From sequence record MW748999.1: a stretch of 64,000 nt of DNA. One strand, given 5' to 3'. A program made the translations under genes and the position numbers. Under the pieces are notes generated by a model. The model ran no database searches, was not told where the DNA came from, and saw only the letters and a list, made by a program, of their open reading frames with translations. Below are positions 3,271-52,668 of the stretch, one piece after another. This DNA is from Escherichia phage vB_EcoM_Skers. Position 1 is the stretch's first letter; the number at the start of each line of letters is the position of its first letter.

Positions 3271-5070
3271 ATGCTAATGTTTAATAACTCCGTTAAATGG
3301 TTTACCGGAATTGTAGAAAACAGGGAAGACCCATTAATGCTGGGGCGTGTTCAGGTTAGGATTCATGGTATACATCCCTCGCTATCCGCACACGGTGACA
3401 TTCAAGGTCTTCCAACCGAAGATCTATTATGGATTACGCCAGTACAAGATATTACAAGCGCGGCGATCTCCGGTATAGGTCAAAGCCCTACTGGTATTGT
3501 TGAAGGTTCAATGGTATTTGGTTTGGCTTTAGATGAACGTTATTTAAACTGCGTTATTCTGGGTACTATTGCCGGACAATATACAGAGAAACCACTCACT
3601 ACAGAAGGTTTTTGCGACCCTTCTGGTGCATATCCTCGTTATATTGGTAATGATGTTAATATTCTTGCTCGTGGCGGTATTAACCCAGAAACCGGACAAA
3701 CAACAAAACCTGATAGTGTCTATATTCGAGATGAAAACACTGGAGTTGCAGTAAATCCAGACGACGAGCCATTAGACCAAATTCCGGTTGATGATAATCC
3801 TGATTTTACAATAGAAAAAATGCTGCGGGGCGATGAGGGGTATCGCGAGAAATGGTATCTTGATTCAGAAGGATATCCGACAATAGGCATCGGTCATTTG
3901 ATCATTTATAAGAAAACCAGTGATCTTGGTATTATCAATAATGAACTTTCTAAGCTGGTAGGGCGTGAAGTTACAAACGGAAGACTTACAGCCGAAGAAG
4001 TTAGTAAAGTATTTGCTGACGATATAGAAAAGACTCGTCGTGATATGCGCAAACATCCACGAATTGCACCTGTCTATAATAAATGTAATGCCTCACGTCG
4101 TATGGCATTAGAAAATATGGCGTTTCAAATGGGTGTTGGTGGATTGGGTAAATTTAAGAATAGTCTTGCTGCGATGTTAGCGGAAGAATGGAAACAAGCC
4201 TATGATGGATTACGTCAATCTGTATGGGCTAATCAAACTCCAGGACGGTCAAGCCGTGTTTCTAAAATTATTTTAACTGGTAACTTAGAATCATATGGCG
4301 TAATTGCTCCAAAGAAAGAGGAATCAATTTCTGATGATCCGCGAGCACGTTTGAGAAATGCCCGTATTGCTGCCTATAAGACGCAGAGAGCAGAAGAAGA
4401 CCCAGAAGCACCGTTTACCCCACAAGACACACGAATCATGTTTAAAGAGCCTAAGAGTTCGTATTCTGCAAGGTATCCATATAACCATGTATACGAGTCA
4501 GAGAGCGGTCATATTATCGAGATTGATGATACTCCGTCTCATGAGCGATATCATCGTAAACATCCTTCGGGTACATTTGAAGAAACCAGACCGGACGGAA
4601 CGAGGGTAGAAAAGATCGAAGGTGATGATTATCTGATCGTTAAACAAGGCCGGAAAGTAAACGTTAAGGGTAATTTGCAAGTTGTTGTTGAAGGTGACGC
4701 GCAAGTTTATTATATGGGTAATGTGATACAAACCGTTGATGGTAACGTCACTGAATTTATTCGTGGTAATGTTAATCAGACCGTTGAAGGTACTGCTAAC
4801 ATGCATGTTGTAGGTGATGTTATCGCACAGCTTGACGCTAATTTGACGGCTAATGTCAAGGGTAATGCTGAATTAATGATCGAGGGTAACACTACCGAAA
4901 CAATTAAAGGTAACTATGATTTAACCGTTGAGGGTAATTTTAATATGACCGTCAATGGCACTAAATCAGATCAGGTTAATGGTGACTGGTCCCGTAATTG
5001 TGGTGCAAGCGTTAAAGATATTGCATCTGGTACAGTTAAAATTGATGGTAGCCGTATTGATCTTGGGTGA
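3271..5070 (+). CDS. 5: gp5 baseplate hub subunit / tail-associated lysozyme (cell-puncturing device)
   Basis: 599 aa; N-terminal OB domain; central T4-lysozyme-like segment (DEGYREKWYLDSEGYPTIGIGHLI); C-terminal V-x-G-N octapeptide beta-helix repeats. Confidence 0.9.
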   Translation: MLMFNNSVKWFTGIVENREDPLMLGRVQVRIHGIHPSLSAHGDIQGLPTEDLLWITPVQDITSAAISGIGQSPTGIVEGSMVFGLALDERYLNCVILGTIAGQYTEKPLTTEGFCDPSGAYPRYIGNDVNILARGGINPETGQTTKPDSVYIRDENTGVAVNPDDEPLDQIPVDDNPDFTIEKMLRGDEGYREKWYLDSEGYPTIGIGHLIIYKKTSDLGIINNELSKLVGREVTNGRLTAEEVSKVFADDIEKTRRDMRKHPRIAPVYNKCNASRRMALENMAFQMGVGGLGKFKNSLAAMLAEEWKQAYDGLRQSVWANQTPGRSSRVSKIILTGNLESYGVIAPKKEESISDDPRARLRNARIAAYKTQRAEEDPEAPFTPQDTRIMFKEPKSSYSARYPYNHVYESESGHIIEIDDTPSHERYHRKHPSGTFEETRPDGTRVEKIEGDDYLIVKQGRKVNVKGNLQVVVEGDAQVYYMGNVIQTVDGNVTEFIRGNVNQTVEGTANMHVVGDVIAQLDANLTANVKGNAELMIEGNTTETIKGNYDLTVEGNFNMTVNGTKSDQVNGDWSRNCGASVKDIASGTVKIDGSRIDLG

Positions 5071-24018: not shown

Positions 24019-25260
24019 ATGACTCATATTTTTACTGAACTGTTGCGGGAATCTACTTCCTCAGTAGCTAACCAGACAGCGCGACCGCAACTATTATCAT
24101 TAACTCGCGCGGTAAACAACCTGATTTTCTCTGATCTGGTAGCAATCCAGCCAACGGATCAACCAGTATCGGCATTGTACGGCCTACGTTATCTTAATCG
24201 TGATGGTCAGATGACTTTCCGAACTGCTGCGACCTACGGTGGCGCGGCTGGTGATCGCACAGAGATTGAAGAGTTTTCAAAAGAAAAATCTTATGACGAA
24301 GGCGCACTGTTCAAATCAGGCGATGTTGTATACGAAGTTGTGACCGCTGGTACAGTCGGTGAAGATGCCGAAACTCCAGAAGCTGCGATCTTTAAAGGCG
24401 TAATGACAAACAAAATTCGTTTCTATAGCGATTGTGCATCGGTAGAATACTTTGAAGATAAAAACACCGAAATTGCGTCTACCTCTATGCAGTTTGACAA
24501 GTGGCAAGTTAATGTAGGTTCTCGTAAACTGAAAACCTCGTTCACCACTGAATTAATGCAGGATCTTGAGGCAAGCCAAATCAACTCTGAAAACTCTGTA
24601 ATTGATCTTCTGGCTACTGTTGCTTCCGAAGAGATCAACAAAGATATTATTCAGAAGTTGATCACTGTATCATCTCGCTATAAAATTAAAGGGATCACCC
24701 CTGATGGCGTACTTTCTCTCGTTAGCGTTCAGGATGCACCAACACAAGCGCGTGAACTTTACCGCTATGCTTGCGAGATGAGCAATCAAATGTTGCGGAC
24801 TTCCTCCTTTGCTGGTACATACGTTTTGGCGTCTTCTCGCGTGGTTGGCCTCCTGCAATCTACCGGATGGATGGAAGAAACCGACAATGCTCTAAGCGAA
24901 GGTCGTCTACGTTGCGGTCTGGAAGTGTACGCAGACACGACAACACCTTTCGATTATATGCTCGTTGGTTGTAAGCACATGATCGGTGATATGGAGAGTG
25001 TAGGTTCTCTGTTCTACTCCCCATATACAGAAGCCGACGGCGCTGGCGCGTATAAGAGCGTAATTGACCCTAATAGCTTCCAGCATCATGTAGCTATTAT
25101 GAATCGTTATTCACTCTCTGTCAACCCATACACATCAAAAGTTGATCAGGAAGAACACCAGGTCATCAAGGGTGACGATTGGGGTAAAATGGCTGGACGT
25201 TCAGAAATGTCCTACATTTTAGGAATCGAACTGCCACCGCTTGAGATTGACAACGCTTAA
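24019..25260 (+). CDS. 24: gp24 head vertex protein
   Basis: 413 aa (T4 gp24 427 aa); gp23-like fold segments; position after gene 23. Confidence 0.9.
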   Translation: MTHIFTELLRESTSSVANQTARPQLLSLTRAVNNLIFSDLVAIQPTDQPVSALYGLRYLNRDGQMTFRTAATYGGAAGDRTEIEEFSKEKSYDEGALFKSGDVVYEVVTAGTVGEDAETPEAAIFKGVMTNKIRFYSDCASVEYFEDKNTEIASTSMQFDKWQVNVGSRKLKTSFTTELMQDLEASQINSENSVIDLLATVASEEINKDIIQKLITVSSRYKIKGITPDGVLSLVSVQDAPTQARELYRYACEMSNQMLRTSSFAGTYVLASSRVVGLLQSTGWMEETDNALSEGRLRCGLEVYADTTTPFDYMLVGCKHMIGDMESVGSLFYSPYTEADGAGAYKSVIDPNSFQHHVAIMNRYSLSVNPYTSKVDQEEHQVIKGDDWGKMAGRSEMSYILGIELPPLEIDNA

Positions 25261-25848
25261 CTAAATATCTAACCAAGACAAGTCAGATCCGCCCAAGATT
25301 TTTTCGACGGCGGATCTATTTTCTTGATGATATAAGTTAAAACATGGTATCCCATGTCTACGGGCAACATAAACAGCAATTCTAGTTCCTCCAGAAACGA
25401 TTCCATTAACTTCTTTCGCCCAGAATATCACACAATCTACAGGATCATCAAGTGTCTCACCTAAGACTTGAGCAACATTTCTAGAAAACAGATTTTGCAT
25501 GTATAACGGTATAGAACGAGGATTATCATAAACGTGTTCTAATTCATCCATCGCCAGATTTTTTTGTTCTAAGGTTTGCCATGCAATCACATCATGACCG
25601 TTATGCTTGTGGTCATAAAACTTCCAATTTGGAATGAAAATTTTTCTATAATCTGGATCGTAATACTTCATGAAAGCATTGTCCATACCGTAAGCCCCTC
25701 CAGAATGCGCTACAACGCGATTTTCTGACAATACCCTCCCAATGGTACTAGCCATTATCAAAATGTCGCTAGGCGCTTTTCTAGAGCCGATTAAAGCACA
25801 TCTACGAAGTTGTTTTACTCCAAATAGATCTTGTAACTGGTCAAACAT
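25261..25848 (-). CDS. DprA/Smf-like Rossmann-fold (SLOG superfamily) protein
   Basis: 195 aa; motif ALIGSRKAPSD...VVAHSGGAYGMDNAF resembles the DprA/LOG nucleotide-binding core (GSR-x-x-S ... SGGA-x-G-x-D); family assignment by motif only. Confidence 0.55.
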   Translation of the reverse strand: MFDQLQDLFGVKQLRRCALIGSRKAPSDILIMASTIGRVLSENRVVAHSGGAYGMDNAFMKYYDPDYRKIFIPNWKFYDHKHNGHDVIAWQTLEQKNLAMDELEHVYDNPRSIPLYMQNLFSRNVAQVLGETLDDPVDCVIFWAKEVNGIVSGGTRIAVYVARRHGIPCFNLYHQENRSAVEKILGGSDLSWLDI

Positions 25849-26002
25849 AATATTTCCTCCATAGAAAGCAATATCATACTACAAGTTAATAACAAATACA
25901 AGTATCCGCGTAGCGGAAGCGAGCACAGCGAGCAATAAAAACACTTCCAGTAATTGATTAATAAATGTTCGAAACAAATTTTTATTATTCTATAAGATAA
26001 GT

Positions 26003-26186
26003 CTTCGTTTTGATCATAATTTAATCATACATGTAAAAACTACACAAAAGGATATCGCTTCGCGAACTCCTACGGAGTATAACATTTGTGTTACAATATG
26101 TAGTGATTAATAATTAACCAAAGATACATTTTCTATGTTCTAAAGATCTTTCTTCGTTTTGATCATAATTTAATCAAACAGTATTA
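26003..26186. repeat. two copies of a 25-bp direct repeat (CTTCGTTTTGATCATAATTTAATCA) about 159 bp apart in a 410-bp intergenic region
   Basis: identical 25-mers at about 26003-26027 and 26162-26186, each followed by a CATGTAAA-containing segment; read directly. Confidence 0.6.
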
Positions 26187-26230
26187 ACATTGTGCACATG
26201 TAAACTAAAATTATGTTAATAACAGATACA

Positions 26231-26254
26231 AAAAAGCCGTCCCGAAGGACGGCT
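26231..26254 (-). terminator. rho-independent terminator after minus-strand gene 26263..26700
   Basis: minus-strand reading GCCGTCC-TTCG-GGACGGC followed by TTTTTTG. Confidence 0.7.
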
Positions 26255-26262
26255 AATGTTAA

Positions 26263-26700
26263 TTATTTGTTGATAACGATCTGATTTCGGCGAATGGTAA
26301 CATTACTCTTAGAGATGATCAGATCATCCGGCACTACGTTAGTTTTGTATGGCTGGAAGCGAACAAGCATCTGATTGCGTTTAGACCCTTCCTTAATCTT
26401 GATTTCCATCTGGATATTGTTGCCTACGTGAGCAACCGCAATTTCACCTTTATTCTCATAGACCCACTTGCTGGTAACGTCTCCAGCAAAAGCCTTAATA
26501 ACTTGCAATGCTTCGTCGTATGCGGTAGAGCTATGAACTTTCAGAAGGCCAGCCGTAGCAAGACGGGAGCAGGTGATCGCCGGAGATTGCCAAACATCAA
26601 CATTAATTTGCTCAATCAGAGTAACACCGCCTTGATCAACTGCTTTGAATGCTTCGAACATTGCCTTTTTCATTGCTACGTGGTTTTTACGGAATTTCAT
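26263..26700 (-). CDS. hypothetical protein (145 aa)
   Basis: ORF track; followed by a clear terminator; no family recognised. Confidence 0.5.
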   Translation of the reverse strand: MKFRKNHVAMKKAMFEAFKAVDQGGVTLIEQINVDVWQSPAITCSRLATAGLLKVHSSTAYDEALQVIKAFAGDVTSKWVYENKGEIAVAHVGNNIQMEIKIKEGSKRNQMLVRFQPYKTNVVPDDLIISKSNVTIRRNQIVINK

Positions 26701-26746
26701 AATTAGTCACCTCTATTGATTAGTTATTCAGAATATTAATTACAAA

Positions 26747-27022
26747 TCAGGACATTGCCCGTTTGAATGCGTCCATTATAACAGTGTTATTTGGCTTGTC
26801 AACACGTTTTTGAACTTTATTTTTAAATTTTTTGTTGATGTGGTGTTTACGATAAACAACCTTTTCACGGTTGGCGTAAGCCTCGCGTGCATCTTTTACC
26901 ATCAACCATGCCTTAGCCGCATCTTGTCCGCTGATCCCGCCAATCTTCTTAGCAATATCAACAAAATTAAGACCGTGGTCTTCGCGTAGCATGTAAACCC
27001 TTAACGCTGTTTTCTTGTCCAT
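26747..27022 (-). CDS. hypothetical basic protein with helix-turn-helix-like segment (about 91 aa)
   Basis: ORF track 26747..27130; start placed at internal Met (MDKKTALRV) forming a TGATG stop/start overlap with the upstream ORF; LNFVDIAKKIGGISGQDAAKAW resembles an HTH. Confidence 0.4.
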   Translation of the reverse strand: MDKKTALRVYMLREDHGLNFVDIAKKIGGISGQDAAKAWLMVKDAREAYANREKVVYRKHHINKKFKNKVQKRVDKPNNTVIMDAFKRAMS

Positions 27023-27219
27023 CACTTCGCCCCATTGACGATTAACAGGATAGTGATCAGTACCGGAAACTGGATCATGACAGTACCAATAAACCGGATA
27101 AACGCATTTTCTGACTTCCACACATGACATGCGACTAGCTGATAGACCATTGTTGCAACCAAAGCCAGAAAATACATCTCGATTGGTGCTTCTTTGATCA
27201 ATCGTACAATCTCATTCAT
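27022..27219 (-). CDS. hypothetical small membrane protein (65 aa)
   Basis: ORF track; hydrophobic stretches (YFLALVATMVYQLVA, VMIQFPVLITILLIV); GAGGTGA SD upstream. Confidence 0.4.
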   Translation of the reverse strand: MNEIVRLIKEAPIEMYFLALVATMVYQLVACHVWKSENAFIRFIGTVMIQFPVLITILLIVNGAK

Positions 27220-27375: not shown

Positions 27376-27407
27376 AACAAAAAAGCCACCCCGAAGGATG
27401 GCTGATA
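27376..27407 (-). terminator. rho-independent terminator after hoc
   Basis: minus-strand reading GCCATCC-TTCG-GGGTGGC followed by TTTTTTGTTTTT. Confidence 0.7.
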
Positions 27408-27414
27408 GATTTCA

Positions 27415-28629
27415 TTAAGCAGGATGCGTTTCACGAATGCGTAGAACTCGCTCTAACGTATCTCGGTCCAGTTTATGTAACTCTTTGGAATGATACATGA
27501 AACCATTGCGAGATTCCATGCAAGTGCAATCACTATATTTTTCTTCCGCTGCCGCGATTGTCTCCAGATCTTTGGCGTACTTGCTGGTAGAATAAACTTC
27601 TCGGTCACGCCACTCTAACCCAGCCTCATTGAATTTAACAATCTCGTCAAATACCCACCATCCAATGTAGATAAATGAAGTTTTGCGCCACGGGATCGGG
27701 TGTACGTAACGAAACATTTTAACAACTTCCATTGAACATTTTCTACTTGTACTTGTTGCAACTTCTACTGTTTCATCTTCGATCTGTTGATATAGTTTAG
27801 CAACACACCAGAATTTGGCTGTGTCATCGTAAGTAGCACTCTCTTTGAACAGATGACCGTCTGGCATGATAGAAAATCCTTCCAGTGCTTCGCCGACCTC
27901 ACTACCGATTAGAGTCGGTGACATTTGCCCTTCGCGCTGCAAATACCAGTTATATTTGATCGTCAAATTAGGCATACCGCTAGAATCGCCTACAATGTCC
28001 TCTGACACAACATAATTAAGTAAGATCTCATTACCTAGTGCCACGGTCTTTGATTCCACCACATCCTGTTCTACGTTCATTGTTGCCAGCATGATTTTAG
28101 TCGATGCGCTAGCGGCTGAATCTTCCGACTCACCCCACACTTTTACAGTATACACGCCGTTTTTATCTGCTGTAAATTCTTGGATTGTAATGTCCTGTTT
28201 TGTGTCTATAACTTCTTCGCCCTTACTCCAACTATAATGTAGTTCATAGTCGTCTGCTGGAGTCTTCCCACCCGAAAATTTTACTGTTGCATGTAATTCT
28301 ACGTCTTTTTGTGATGATACGTAGAAATGCTGCGGTTCGGTGATATTTACGATTAATTCAGCTTCTTCCATGAGGAAAACGTCAGATTCTACTGATTCCA
28401 TCGTATCGGTATCTTGTACCGTTACTTTATAGCTACCCGCATTTTCACTTGTTGCACCTACTACAGATAGCGTAGCTGTGCTATTTTCATGTGGTTGGTC
28501 GTCTTTTGTCCATGTATATGTCAAATTGCTGGGTAATGGTTCGTCACCCGCTACAGTCGCCGTTAAGGTGAAACCATCTCCAGCAAGAAAGCATCTTTTG
28601 TCAGATTTAATTGATACTGTGAAAGCCAT
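27415..28629 (-). CDS. hoc: Hoc-like head outer capsid decoration protein with Ig-like domains
   Basis: 404 aa; tandem Ig-like segments (LTYTWTKDDQ..SENAGSYKVTV; YELHYSWSKGEE..KNGVYTVKVWG); position between gene 24 region and uvsW as in T4. Confidence 0.7.
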   Translation of the reverse strand: MAFTVSIKSDKRCFLAGDGFTLTATVAGDEPLPSNLTYTWTKDDQPHENSTATLSVVGATSENAGSYKVTVQDTDTMESVESDVFLMEEAELIVNITEPQHFYVSSQKDVELHATVKFSGGKTPADDYELHYSWSKGEEVIDTKQDITIQEFTADKNGVYTVKVWGESEDSAASASTKIMLATMNVEQDVVESKTVALGNEILLNYVVSEDIVGDSSGMPNLTIKYNWYLQREGQMSPTLIGSEVGEALEGFSIMPDGHLFKESATYDDTAKFWCVAKLYQQIEDETVEVATSTSRKCSMEVVKMFRYVHPIPWRKTSFIYIGWWVFDEIVKFNEAGLEWRDREVYSTSKYAKDLETIAAAEEKYSDCTCMESRNGFMYHSKELHKLDRDTLERVLRIRETHPA

Positions 28630-28893
28630 ATAAAGCCACTCCCATAGAAAATCCGAATTTAATTAATTGAAATAGTTGATTGCCATCAACCAGATAACCA
28701 TTGCGAGATTCCAATACATGAGTATTAGAATAGTGATGCAACGAGGCCGAAATAGTATCGATCACGTCTGGGTATTTGTTCTGTTTGATGTAATACATTG
28801 ATTTTGTTAGACATGTAGTATCCTCTTTTAATTGCATAACGGAACTACAATTAAAATTATAACAAATATTTCACAACTTTTATCACCCAAAAA

Positions 28894-29619
28894 TTACTTG
28901 AGTGTGTGGAATTGGCTATGTTTAGTCTCTCGCACCTTGACAGACCCATCGCGTTTGATATAATAGATCAGTGACTTGAGGGTGTCGTGTACATACGCGT
29001 GCGGGAAACGCTCTGGATACTTCTTCCAATCTGGAGTATTAACGATCCAGTCGAAAATCCACCACGGGCAGGAGTAGTAACCACGACCGCCACCGATCAA
29101 GCAAATGGTCGGACGGAAGCCAGTAAGATCGCAAAATGAATCAGTGTCATTTGCTGGGGAACGATGTTCTGCTTCGTCAGAGAAAATGTTTGCTACCGGA
29201 GATTCCACTTTAACTTCCTGTGCTTCTTCAACATCTGACTTAACTTCTTCGACCACTGGTTCAACTGCTGGAGATTCTTCTTTTGTTTCTTCAATGACGA
29301 TCTCAGGTTCTTTCATTGCTTCAACCAGAGACGGGTCAACTTCGTCGAATACCACTTTATCATCTGCGGTGTCTGCTGCCAGAATAAGATCGTTAATACC
29401 GGTTCCTTCTGCCGGAGTTTCTTCTTCCATTTCGGAAGCAAGTTTAGTTAATTCGGTTTCTACGAACTCGATCATGTTCTCTAGTGATAAAGTCTTTTTG
29501 ACCTTGATATCAAATTGTTTGGCATAATCAGCTAATTCTGTTTTAGCGGTTTTCTGTGCTTCTTTGTCGTCGGACGCCGCAATAGCGCGGAGTTCTTCGA
29601 AATATTCTTTATCAAACAT
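28894..29619 (-). CDS. hypothetical acidic protein at the T4 inh position
   Basis: 241 aa with acidic central region; located between hoc and uvsW where T4 has inh; similarity to Inh not verified. Confidence 0.45.
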   Translation of the reverse strand: MFDKEYFEELRAIAASDDKEAQKTAKTELADYAKQFDIKVKKTLSLENMIEFVETELTKLASEMEEETPAEGTGINDLILAADTADDKVVFDEVDPSLVEAMKEPEIVIEETKEESPAVEPVVEEVKSDVEEAQEVKVESPVANIFSDEAEHRSPANDTDSFCDLTGFRPTICLIGGGRGYYSCPWWIFDWIVNTPDWKKYPERFPHAYVHDTLKSLIYYIKRDGSVKVRETKHSQFHTLK

Positions 29620-46546: not shown

Positions 46547-46571
46547 AAAAAAAGCCGACACTAAGGTCGGC
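46547..46571 (-). terminator. rho-independent terminator after gene 46580..46891
   Basis: minus-strand GCCGAC-CTTAGT-GTCGGC followed by TTTTTTT. Confidence 0.7.
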
Positions 46572-46579
46572 TAATAAAA

Positions 46580-50239: not shown

Positions 50240-50716
50240 TTATTTTTCTTGATGCTCGCGCTCGTACTTTTCGAAATAAAATTCTACTGGCTGGTCGTGG
50301 ATTGACAGTAAGCCAAAGCGTTTAGCCGCTCGCAATCCCATATTGCGCTGAATGTACTTCTGGAAGTTCTCGCGTATACACTTACGCCAGTATTCTAAGC
50401 CCATACAGCTTTTATAAAGATTGCATTGCACACATGCCGGATTCATGTTATCAAGTATATCATGCTCCGGTTTATGCATTCCTACAACCTTATACTTCCA
50501 CGATCCATCATCATTACGGGCAATTCGTCCATTTTCATCATAGACTACCTTTGAGCGTCGCAATACTGGTTTGATGTGGTCTGCGTGCCAGCGATCCCCT
50601 AGTTCCTCGCCACAATAGGCACAACGTCCACCATATTTCATTTTCAGGATCTGGCGTTGCTCTTTCTTTGACAATTTTTTAGGTTTAGGGGCTTTCGCCC
50701 CTTCATTATCACACAT
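50240..50716 (-). CDS. HNH endonuclease (free-standing, homing-endonuclease-like)
   Basis: 158 aa; HNH core GRCAYCGEEL...WHADHIKPV...NMNPACVQCN (Cys pair, His-x-Asp-His, Asn, Cys pair); start overlaps DNA ligase stop. Confidence 0.75.
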   Translation of the reverse strand: MCDNEGAKAPKPKKLSKKEQRQILKMKYGGRCAYCGEELGDRWHADHIKPVLRRSKVVYDENGRIARNDDGSWKYKVVGMHKPEHDILDNMNPACVQCNLYKSCMGLEYWRKCIRENFQKYIQRNMGLRAAKRFGLLSIHDQPVEFYFEKYEREHQEK

Positions 50717-52208
50717 CGAATACCTCTTTTACTGTATTTGCAGTGGTCTTGTCGTAGCGAATACGTTTGATGATCGGGAGAAATAAAGAGAACTCTGGTT
50801 CATCTTCTTTACGTGATTTGCTGCGGATATACCCGTTGCATGTCATCTCAATGACTTTTCCAATCAGGTTATGACGGTCAGCCCATAACATTTCTCGGTC
50901 AAGTTCATTTCTACGATCGAACGGAATCACACGTTCAATACCATCATCTTTTTCGGTTGTAGTGTCGGTCAATCCCGATCCGGTGTTGGTCATCATTCGT
51001 CCGCACGCACTACGGACAGTAAAACCGCCTACCTTATTAGGATCTTTACTATGCGGATATACATCAACAATTTCCGCGTCGAAGTCAATCACTTCTTTAA
51101 ATTTAACCTGATCTTTACTACGGCGATCTTCAAATACACCATGTAAATTTTTAAGGATAATACCTTCTAAGCCCATGTTTACATAGCGATGATATACTTC
51201 GCGAGCTTCATCTATATTGTTAACTACAGTGTTTTCGATTATCTGAACACGAGGATCGTTAAGTTCTTCAACAATCTGTTTTAGTTCTTCGAATCGATCT
51301 TTATATTGCTTCGTTGCTTTCTCGTTTCCGTAATACACATCACGGTCGATAACATCCCAGACAGTGTAAACAATACATTGGGCTTCTTCTTTTGGAATAG
51401 TTCCTTTCAGTGATTTGTTGAGGATACCATTTCCGGTCTGACGATCTGCAACAACGGATTCTTTTACTGCTTCCGCTACTGGCGTTAATGGCATTTCCTC
51501 TTCTTCAAATATCCATGACAGAGTACCATCATAAACGCTTTCAACGAAGTTCTGCGCTGGTGTTTGCGAAAGGGTAGGCATATATACCAATTCCCCATCT
51601 AGAACAATTCCACGGCCTCGTAGACGCTCTAAAACAGCAAACAAATCATCCAGCCCCTGATAGGTATTACCTGAACGGGTATAGATTGCTAATGTTTCCC
51701 CGTCAATATCAGCCATCCCACGAGCGCCATCGCTTTTAAGTTGTGCATACGCCGGATACTTGATATTAGCAATAGTCTTATCAGAACATGACGATGCAAG
51801 GTGGCACGGTTGCTGAGGGATCAGTTTCTTCCATACCTTGTTTGCAGTGGTAGCGGAACAACCGCATTCCAGATCACGATTCAGGACCATCATTGCAACT
51901 TTAGCATCATCTTCTGACAAGCAAGTCAGAGTATCGGTAACTAGCTGTAATGCTGCATTACCAGTTACTTGACGCGTGGCAAGTTTATTTTTAAAGACCT
52001 GTAATGCACCGGATAAAGACAATACAGACGAATAACGCGATGGTTTATCGTATTTCTTTACGCCAAACGTAACCTGTTTGCAATATGCCAGATAAAAACA
52101 TTCTTTCAGTGTTTCATTGCTTGCAGATTCTTTCAGGATCTTTTCTTTCAGCGATGTTTTGTCTGTTGCTGCAAGCTGGTTAATGATATTAAGAATTGAC
52201 ATTTTCAC
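50709..52208 (-). CDS. 30: gp30 ATP-dependent DNA ligase
   Basis: 499 aa (T4 ligase 487 aa); motif I lysine in AQLKSDGARG (KxDG); located after alt region as in T4. Confidence 0.9.
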   Translation of the reverse strand: MKMSILNIINQLAATDKTSLKEKILKESASNETLKECFYLAYCKQVTFGVKKYDKPSRYSSVLSLSGALQVFKNKLATRQVTGNAALQLVTDTLTCLSEDDAKVAMMVLNRDLECGCSATTANKVWKKLIPQQPCHLASSCSDKTIANIKYPAYAQLKSDGARGMADIDGETLAIYTRSGNTYQGLDDLFAVLERLRGRGIVLDGELVYMPTLSQTPAQNFVESVYDGTLSWIFEEEEMPLTPVAEAVKESVVADRQTGNGILNKSLKGTIPKEEAQCIVYTVWDVIDRDVYYGNEKATKQYKDRFEELKQIVEELNDPRVQIIENTVVNNIDEAREVYHRYVNMGLEGIILKNLHGVFEDRRSKDQVKFKEVIDFDAEIVDVYPHSKDPNKVGGFTVRSACGRMMTNTGSGLTDTTTEKDDGIERVIPFDRRNELDREMLWADRHNLIGKVIEMTCNGYIRSKSRKEDEPEFSLFLPIIKRIRYDKTTANTVKEVFDV

Positions 52209-52668
52209 CTCGTTTTGTTAAACGTTCACGAATATCATTGAGGATACTACAAAATTCCGATTCAGTCAATATAGTCTTTAACGGATCAGTTCCACCTATG
52301 CTATGTCGCAATTTCTTATTTCCGGTCGCGAGTAATGCTTTACAAAATTCTGGGTTATTCCGTGCCATCGTAACAAATGCCAGATGTACCAGTCTGTAAT
52401 AATGCTCACTCATTCGATGAATCGGGCGACCCTGAAAATATAACATGTGATTCTCAATCTTTTCAGTTCTTCCGGTTCTTTTTGCTTTGCCACCGTGCAT
52501 CAAAAAGATTTCTCTTTGTCTCTGAGGGTTCTTAAATCTTAGCCCCTGTAAAAATCCTTCTGTGCTGTTAATATCGCAACCAAATAGACGGAATGGTCTT
52601 TTATTGAAATTACTCAATTCACCCGATGGATAAGGTCCACCCGCATAGATATCAATTTCAGAAGTCAT
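52189..52668 (-). CDS. NADAR (YbiA/DUF1768) domain protein
   Basis: 159 aa; patterns ELSNF...PF, NSTEGFLQGLRF and KALLATG parallel E. coli YbiA segments (DFSNF, PTSEHYFQAQKF, ALLLAT) as remembered. Confidence 0.6.
   Translation of the reverse strand: MTSEIDIYAGGPYPSGELSNFNKRPFRLFGCDINSTEGFLQGLRFKNPQRQREIFLMHGGKAKRTGRTEKIENHMLYFQGRPIHRMSEHYYRLVHLAFVTMARNNPEFCKALLATGNKKLRHSIGGTDPLKTILTESEFCSILNDIRERLTKRGENVNS

Follow-up and report, generated by a model that had tools for sequence, protein, structure and literature searches.

The 64,000-nucleotide window analysed here, which derives from a Krischvirus (a coliphage of the RB49/JSE/phi1 type), encodes between gene 24 and hoc a single-domain protein that belongs to a large phage family of DprA-like SLOG proteins. 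The identity and fold of this protein, the conservation of its motifs, the fusions of its relatives and its synteny are established by the comparisons described below. Our preferred explanation, which we hold tentatively and with somewhat less than even confidence, is that the SLOG protein assists nucleic-acid repair or counter-defence as an accessory factor that clamps a nucleotide. The gene had already been annotated and its family surveyed computationally, and the novelty of the observation is therefore low. The family is nevertheless present in approximately 1350 sequenced phage genomes, including those of therapy-type coliphages and of Klebsiella, Pseudomonas and Acinetobacter phages, and it carries the name ‘recombination mediator’ without experimental support. 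RB49 and JSE grow on Escherichia coli K-12, which makes them handy test systems.

A DprA-clade SLOG protein between gene 24 and hoc

The first-pass annotation, made from the sequence alone, placed a DprA/SLOG-like Rossmann-fold protein at positions 25261 to 25848, between gene 24 and hoc. Both the open reading frame (ORF) and its flanking genes were confirmed. The coding sequence of 195 codons lies on the minus strand and begins with an ATG (25848-25846), and a strong Shine-Dalgarno sequence, GGAGG (25856-25860, minus strand), can be read 7 nt 5ʹ of this start. Gene 24 (24019-25260, plus strand) is convergent, with the two stop codons abutting directly; its product matches the Pfam Gp23 family (E = 6e-88) and is annotated in JSE as the capsid vertex protein. 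The hoc gene occupies 27415-28629 (minus strand). Over a 2.3-kb stretch around the SLOG gene, which is covered by 58 Krischvirus records, the window is 99.2% identical to JSE, where the corresponding protein (YP_002922241) bears the RefSeq name ‘DprA-like DNA recombination-mediator protein’ and the gene order is gene 24, YP_002922241, a 145-aa ORF, a 24.3-like gene and hoc. At the equivalent position T4 holds rnlB, 24.2 and 24.3 and no SLOG gene, and therefore the earlier impression that T4 has no counterpart there was correct. No match to the SLOG family was found within the 60 kb of T4 examined. In the window, a search for rnlB detected neither a remnant in the gap upstream of the SLOG gene nor a copy elsewhere.

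Several features of the surrounding genes deserve mention in their own right. The 145-aa ORF (26263-26700, minus strand) matches PHROG 15652 and no Pfam family, and is syntenic with ORFs of 142-155 aa at two metagenomic loci (L038 and L039) and in Morganella phage vB_Mm5 (L040). The DUF2774 (24.3-like) ORF (26747-27130, minus strand) encodes 127 aa when read from its first ATG, versus the 91 aa annotated in JSE. Between 20 and 31 kb, the canonical late promoter TATAAATA is absent from the minus strand, despite the presence there of hoc and inh (27415-29619, minus strand); all five sites in this interval (20805, 21658, 23415, 23975 and 29646) are on the plus strand. Finally, an inverted repeat whose 9-bp arms, AGATCCGCC/GGCGGATCT, match perfectly can be read at 25285-25317 (plus strand), together with a loop of 15 nt and a tail rich in T. 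It lies 25 nt past the gene 24 stop, inside the last 20 codons of the SLOG coding sequence, and is likely the terminator of the late gene 24 transcript, as predicted from its sequence.

The two motifs on which the original fold proposal rested are present in the protein (IGSRKAPSD, residues 20-28; SGGAYGMDNAF, residues 49-59), and the resemblance extends well beyond chance. A profile search returned a full-length match to PHROG 768, a phage DprA-like SLOG family, with residues 15-187 aligned to positions 4-181 of the 191-position profile (E = 9.6e-61). Structure prediction likewise supported the proposal: the AF2 model (pLDDT 87, pTM 0.85) consists of one alpha/beta domain with a DprA-type Rossmann fold, in agreement with Foldseek, and its C-terminal tail is poorly modelled. 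In a PDB search with the family profile, matches were significant for DprA chains only (E about 1e-5) and covered only the first 60 residues, and in a relaxed profile alignment the domain and E. coli Smf are in register throughout.

Relatives of the protein were detected by tblastn in 1356 of 50,697 phage records, in a list headed by phages of Klebsiella, Pseudomonas, Escherichia, Aeromonas, Vibrio and Acinetobacter. An exhaustive profile search (E ≤ 1e-3) yielded 4319 representatives of 50% identity clusters, nearly all of them stand-alone proteins of ~180 aa. The family is rare in bacteria, with 24 loci among 185,579 species genomes in a two-pattern scan that used one genome per species and patterns derived from a 12-sequence alignment. 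The neighbourhoods of two metagenomic homologs contain small unknown ORFs only. A full-text literature search found no experiment on any member of the family.

Conservation was measured on 100 diverse members, among which mean column identity is 28%. Invariant or near-invariant residues comprise G21, S22, R23, P26, S49, G50, G51, A52, G54, D56, P73, R123, N124, Q127, G130, G153, G154, T155, A158, A162 and N171. The window protein carries all of the family-invariant positions (G21, G50, D56, R123, G153, G154 and T155) and all 13 near-invariant ones. In the DprA of Helicobacter pylori (HpDprA), one base (thymine) of single-stranded DNA (ssDNA) is held in a small conserved pocket, and the motifs G-S/T/A-R and F/L/Y-x-x-R-N/D have been proposed as diagnostic ssDNA motifs (Wang et al., PMC3950713). 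Both motifs occur in the window protein, which retains a DprA-type pocket made up of G21-S-R23, S49-G-G-A-x-G-x-D56, L120-x-x-R123-N124 and G153-G154-T155. The first motif, G21-S22-R23, aligns to G-T-R of HpDprA (Gly50-Arg52), with G21 invariant and S22 and R23 each conserved in at least 90% of the 100 members. The second, L120-F-S-R123-N124, falls in a predicted helix (residues 115-129) and aligns to F-P-R-R-N of Smf (HpDprA Phe140-Asn144); its R123 is invariant and its N124 is found in 96% of members. G154 aligns with the HpDprA base contact Gly164, and Y173, which is not conserved in the family, with the dimer-interface residue Pro183. Two further invariant polar residues, Q127 and N171, are absent from DprA.

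An assignment to canonical DprA was nonetheless rejected. Residues 14-60 alone match PF02481, where 23.0 bits fall short of the 29.6 required, and TIGR00732 gives 15.2 against a threshold of 191.15, so that both scores fall below the curated thresholds; moreover, the single-domain protein has neither a SAM domain nor the C-terminal DML1/winged-helix domains. Its predicted charge also differs, with a pI of 6.4 and a net charge of -2 (family range, pI 4.4 to 9.95) versus a pI of 9.9 for the DprA domain of Smf, and conserved basic residues are limited to the pocket. We regard the family as the closest sister of bacterial DprA, though not as canonical DprA, and the window protein is best classed as a DprA-clade SLOG domain rather than a DprA orthologue.

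An upstream region with tandem repeats

The region upstream of the SLOG gene had been noted for its length, put at 410 bp, and for its direct repeats. It measures 414 bp (25849-26262), is the longest ORF-free stretch of the window and has a GC content of 30% versus 40% overall, and the tandem duplication is real. Read along the sense strand, it presents a terminator, two tandem units, a leader block with a hairpin, and the Shine-Dalgarno sequence. The strong intrinsic terminator (26235-26254, minus strand), which has an 8-bp GC-rich stem, a TTCG loop and a T6 tail, ends the upstream 145-aa ORF and is predicted to insulate the SLOG gene, which would form a transcription unit of its own. Similar hairpins of the form AAAAAAGCC....GGCT are found at 26235-26254, 27377-27406 and 46548-46575, and their 86% identity over ~30 nt suggests a putative terminator cassette that is reused.

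The proximal repeat unit (25955-26031, minus strand) contains the core TGATTAAATTATGATCAAA, with two 7-bp half-sites 11 bp apart, followed after 17 nt by the -10-like hexamer TAGAAT (25992-25987). The distal unit (26104-26180, minus strand) lies 149 nt upstream and has an identical core and a degenerate -10-like hexamer. The duplication has a unit of ~78 nt, a period of 149 nt and an exact 26-nt core, for which the number of matches expected by chance is zero. The same layout is shared with the two metagenomic relatives at L038 and L039, whose SLOG proteins are 57% and 50% identical to that of the window. Their units (3662-3706 and 3802-3846 in L038; 3732-3795 and 3857-3920 in L039) have periods of 140 and 125 nt, respectively. 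All six units share as their conserved core the bipartite direct repeat TGrTTAAw-N3-TGAwCAAA, again with two 7-bp half-sites 11 bp apart. The second half-site contains GATC in five of the six, and the element can also be written TGATYAA-N4-TGATCAA with an 11-bp period. A -10-like hexamer follows the core by 15-17 nt and is a perfect TATAAT in the two relatives. Closer to the gene, a leader hairpin (CCGC-N3-GCGG with a T-rich tail; 25905-25917, minus strand) lies in a leader block that is kept in L038 and L039, and is possibly an attenuator.

Taken together, the repeats look like two tandem, factor-dependent putative promoters, under an activator or a repressor, that would be specific to the SLOG gene. 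The bipartite element was found nowhere else in the window, and the idea that its core marks a general promoter class was rejected for this reason. On the sense strand of the gap there is no consensus -35 element, no late promoter and no strong sigma70 match, and the best promoter candidates all have fewer than 9 of 12 consensus matches. The arrangement can be compared with the PeSL cassettes of RB49 and phi1, in which a stem-loop terminator leads into an AT-rich stretch and a sigma70 promoter of consensus sequence, a set repeated around the genome (PMC2839356). The terminator and AT-rich tract are present here, no promoter on the sense strand reaches 9 of 12 matches, and within the window the repeat core is unique to the SLOG locus. 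Searches for other elements in the region gave little: an Rfam scan of 25200-26800 returned sub-threshold noise only (Ysr49, at 25 bits versus 95, and TarB), folding of the 386-nt leader gave no signal of RNA structure (z = -0.7 sense, -1.8 antisense), and the small ORFs in the gap are unconvincing, at 32 aa or fewer.

Domain fusions and gene pairings

Among the best 150 of the 4319 representatives, three proteins (P0046, P0123 and P0152) carry a NADAR domain N-terminal to the SLOG domain, one (P0137) joins the SLOG domain to DUF4326, and another (P0138) joins it to a complete RecJ exonuclease. Two polyvalent metagenomic proteins of ~1480 aa (P0017 and P0019) combine the SLOG domain with a YAcAr SLOG domain, an LDcluster4 SLOG domain and NADAR; about 500 residues of these proteins carry no domain assignment. 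At the bacterial loci, fusions to DUF4326 (L018, L023 and L024), to a PD-(D/E)XK nuclease (L022) and to a weak Macro match (L032) were observed, and separate NADAR or DUF4326 genes lie near the SLOG gene in L018, L028, L034 and L035. No recombinase was present among the fusions recovered.

NADAR domains strip ADP-ribose from guanine in DNA, and the T4 member gp30.3 (AdfN) neutralises DarTG1 (PMC11543638, PMC11825919). The window encodes a gp30.3/AdfN-type NADAR protein (52189-52668, minus strand; Pfam Phage_30_3, E = 1e-38) directly upstream of the DNA ligase gene (50709-52208), so that in this phage SLOG and NADAR, which are joined in single proteins elsewhere, are the products of separate genes.

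A second association involves RNA ligase 2 (Rnl2). In Jiaodavirus (L002, 3000-4555) and in vB_Mm5 (L040, 2956-4588), the SLOG gene overlaps the stop codon of the RNA ligase 2 gene, and it overlaps an RNA ligase gene in the same way in five more T4-like phages sampled from the tblastn list. In Slopekvirus (L007, 1446-3564), a homing-endonuclease gene alone separates the RNA ligase 2 gene from the SLOG gene that follows it. In vB_Mm5, 30.3 (NADAR) and the gene for DNA ligase (L040, 6482-7454) lie 1.9 kb downstream of the pair and share its orientation. We found no description of the Rnl2-SLOG pairing in the portions of the literature available to our search. The link is not obligatory, since Krischvirus has no rnlB beside its SLOG gene. 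Genes for NAMPT and NMNAT lie near the SLOG gene in Slopekvirus and in phage Moby.

Possible functions and comparison with known systems

If the SLOG protein is a nucleotide-clamping accessory factor, its pocket would hold a single nucleotide within a single-stranded nucleic acid, or a nucleotide adduct borne by that nucleic acid, much as HpDprA holds a thymine. Its part in nucleic-acid repair and counter-defence would then be one of recognition, protection or targeting, and it would work alongside the enzymes to which it is fused or translationally coupled in other genomes, namely NADAR (AdfN type), DUF4326, Macro, RecJ, PD-(D/E)XK nuclease and RNA ligase 2. The gene would form its own transcription unit, behind a terminator and expressed from the two tandem, locus-specific promoter-like repeats. 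The ligand, the time at which the gene is expressed and its pairing with gp30.3 are all inferred. A nucleic-acid-bound nucleotide is favoured because of the closest relatives of the protein, its DprA pocket, the links to nucleases and a ligase, and the DNA-directed activity of NADAR. Several features count against this model or fit another equally well. Confinement of the basic residues to the pocket and an acidic pI suit a site for a small ligand at least as well as an extended surface for binding DNA, and the extra residues Q127 and N171 hint that the ligand is more specific or that the protein is catalytic. The polyvalent proteins that join several SLOG domains to NADAR read more like devices for small-molecule processing, and the non-conserved Tyr at the position of DprA Pro183 also weighs against it.

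A more specific version of this explanation is rather improbable in our estimation. In this version, members of the family would recognise nucleotides that are damaged or ADP-ribosylated, on phage DNA or RNA in single-stranded form, and would work with the AdfN/gp30.3 NADAR hydrolase (elsewhere with Rnl2 or DNA ligase). If true, the family would constitute a new and widespread phage counter-defence and repair module against DNA-modifying or DNA-cutting immunity of the DarTG or Avs3 kind, expressed under a dedicated tandem operator-promoter. More broadly, given its fusions to NADAR, DUF4326 and nucleases, the family could plausibly supply a missing partner in the resistance of phages to DNA ADP-ribosylation or nuclease-type defences.

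The main rival explanation, to which we give somewhat less confidence, is that the protein sponges, senses or cleaves the glycosidic bond of a soluble signal or metabolite derived from ADP-ribose (cADPR isomers, ADPR or AMP), and together with NADAR, Macro and DUF4326 blunts NAD+-based defences. In their 2022 survey of SLOG domains in viruses, Iyer, Burroughs, Anantharaman and Aravind predicted such processing of soluble ADP-ribose signals (PMC9503650). The mildly acidic pI, the varied charge of the family with basic conservation in the pocket alone, the invariant Q127 and N171, the multi-SLOG polyvalent proteins, and the proximity of NAMPT and NMNAT genes in two genera all agree with it. A further parallel is ORF83, which is said to have been reported by Gao et al. 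2022. It is a phage protein annotated as DprA/Smf with experimentally demonstrated anti-Avs3 activity, and a preprint that discusses it predicts AMP binding (bioRxiv 10.1101/2025.06.06.658234). However, the relatives of ORF83 among giant-virus SLOG proteins resemble the window protein only remotely in structure. Each conserved pocket residue has a counterpart in DprA, the RecJ and PD-(D/E)XK fusions and the coupling to RNA ligase 2 suggest nucleic acids, and NADAR acts on DNA-linked ADP-ribose. A LOG-type hydrolase mechanism in particular is unlikely because, in the PF03641 motif alignment, the LOG sequence PGGxGTxxE corresponds to V-S-G-G-T155-R-I-A158, so that the catalytic Glu is replaced by Ala158 (Ala in 95% of members). 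With no Pfam LOG or YpsA match at E ≤ 1, assignment to the LOG enzymes was rejected.

The name given to the JSE protein implies instead a true DprA-like recombination mediator that binds ssDNA as a dimer and loads phage UvsX or host RecA, a role that we regard as very unlikely here. The DprA fold and ssDNA motifs are in its favour, as is the dependence of T4-type replication on recombination, and DprA/Smf copies of jumbo phages have been suggested to be extra ssDNA-binding proteins (PMC7824862). Yet the protein scores below both curated DprA thresholds, is without the SAM and winged-helix domains, and does not conserve the dimer-interface position. The family, moreover, is patchily distributed, none of its recovered fusions is to a recombinase, and T4, in 60 kb of which no member was seen, recombines well without one. 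Extremely unlikely, finally, is the proposal that the protein mimics the antitoxin of ShosTA or PsyrTA, replacing ShosA or PsyrA and keeping the toxin silent. PADLOC does report ShosA and PsyrA matches (21 and 18 bits), but these span only ~46 residues of the shared Rossmann N-terminus. No PRTase toxin adjoins the SLOG gene, whose neighbours are gp24 and the 145-aa ORF, and the ShosA/PsyrA assignment was rejected on these two grounds. The functions of ShosA and DprA depend on RecA contacts. ShosA requires a SAM domain, the formation of dimers and binding to RecA (PMC12961424), none of which is evident in the window protein, and it does not bind ShosT directly.

The SLOG protein can be set against the systems that it most resembles. 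From bacterial DprA/Smf (PF02481; structures 4LJK/4LJR, 3UQZ and 3MAJ), it differs in being a single 195-aa domain below the family thresholds, with a segment of its own between strand 3 and the RN helix and with the invariant Q127 and N171. It is also acidic where DprA is basic, is carried by phages and seldom found in bacterial chromosomes, and does not demonstrably retain the dimer and RecA-contact residues. With ShosA and PsyrA it shares the DprA-type Rossmann domain, and ShosA binds ssDNA through an equivalent positively charged groove; ShosA, however, is a dimeric, RecA-binding protein of ~320 aa with a SAM domain and a PRTase toxin partner. The LOG and PpnN-type phosphoribohydrolases belong to the same superfamily and share the glycine-rich nucleotide loop and the GGT-type phosphate loop, whereas the YpsA-like and ThsA-type SLOG sensors gave neither a profile match nor a close structural match to the protein.

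ORF83, compared through its description and its giant-virus relatives, is probably a neighbouring family and not the same one. Both are small SLOG proteins of phages with an R-N...T pocket, and ORF83, too, has relatives in which DUF4326 is fused. Its spacing from R89/N90 to T112 is ~9 residues shorter, however, the DUF4326 fusions of its relatives are C-terminal rather than N-terminal, and its Marseilleviridae relatives align to the AF2 model of the window protein with a TM score of 0.43, against ~0.75 for true family members. In the literature searched, ORF83 was the only phage protein annotated as DprA/Smf for which an experimentally supported counter-defence role was found. The family also corresponds to the viral SLOG domains surveyed in 2022, for which ADP-ribose-related fusions had already been recorded (PMC9503650). 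As in that survey, the family resides in medium-sized and large caudoviruses, usually as a stand-alone protein, and the recurrent fusions to NADAR, Macro and DUF4326, together with sporadic fusions to nucleases, are reproduced here.
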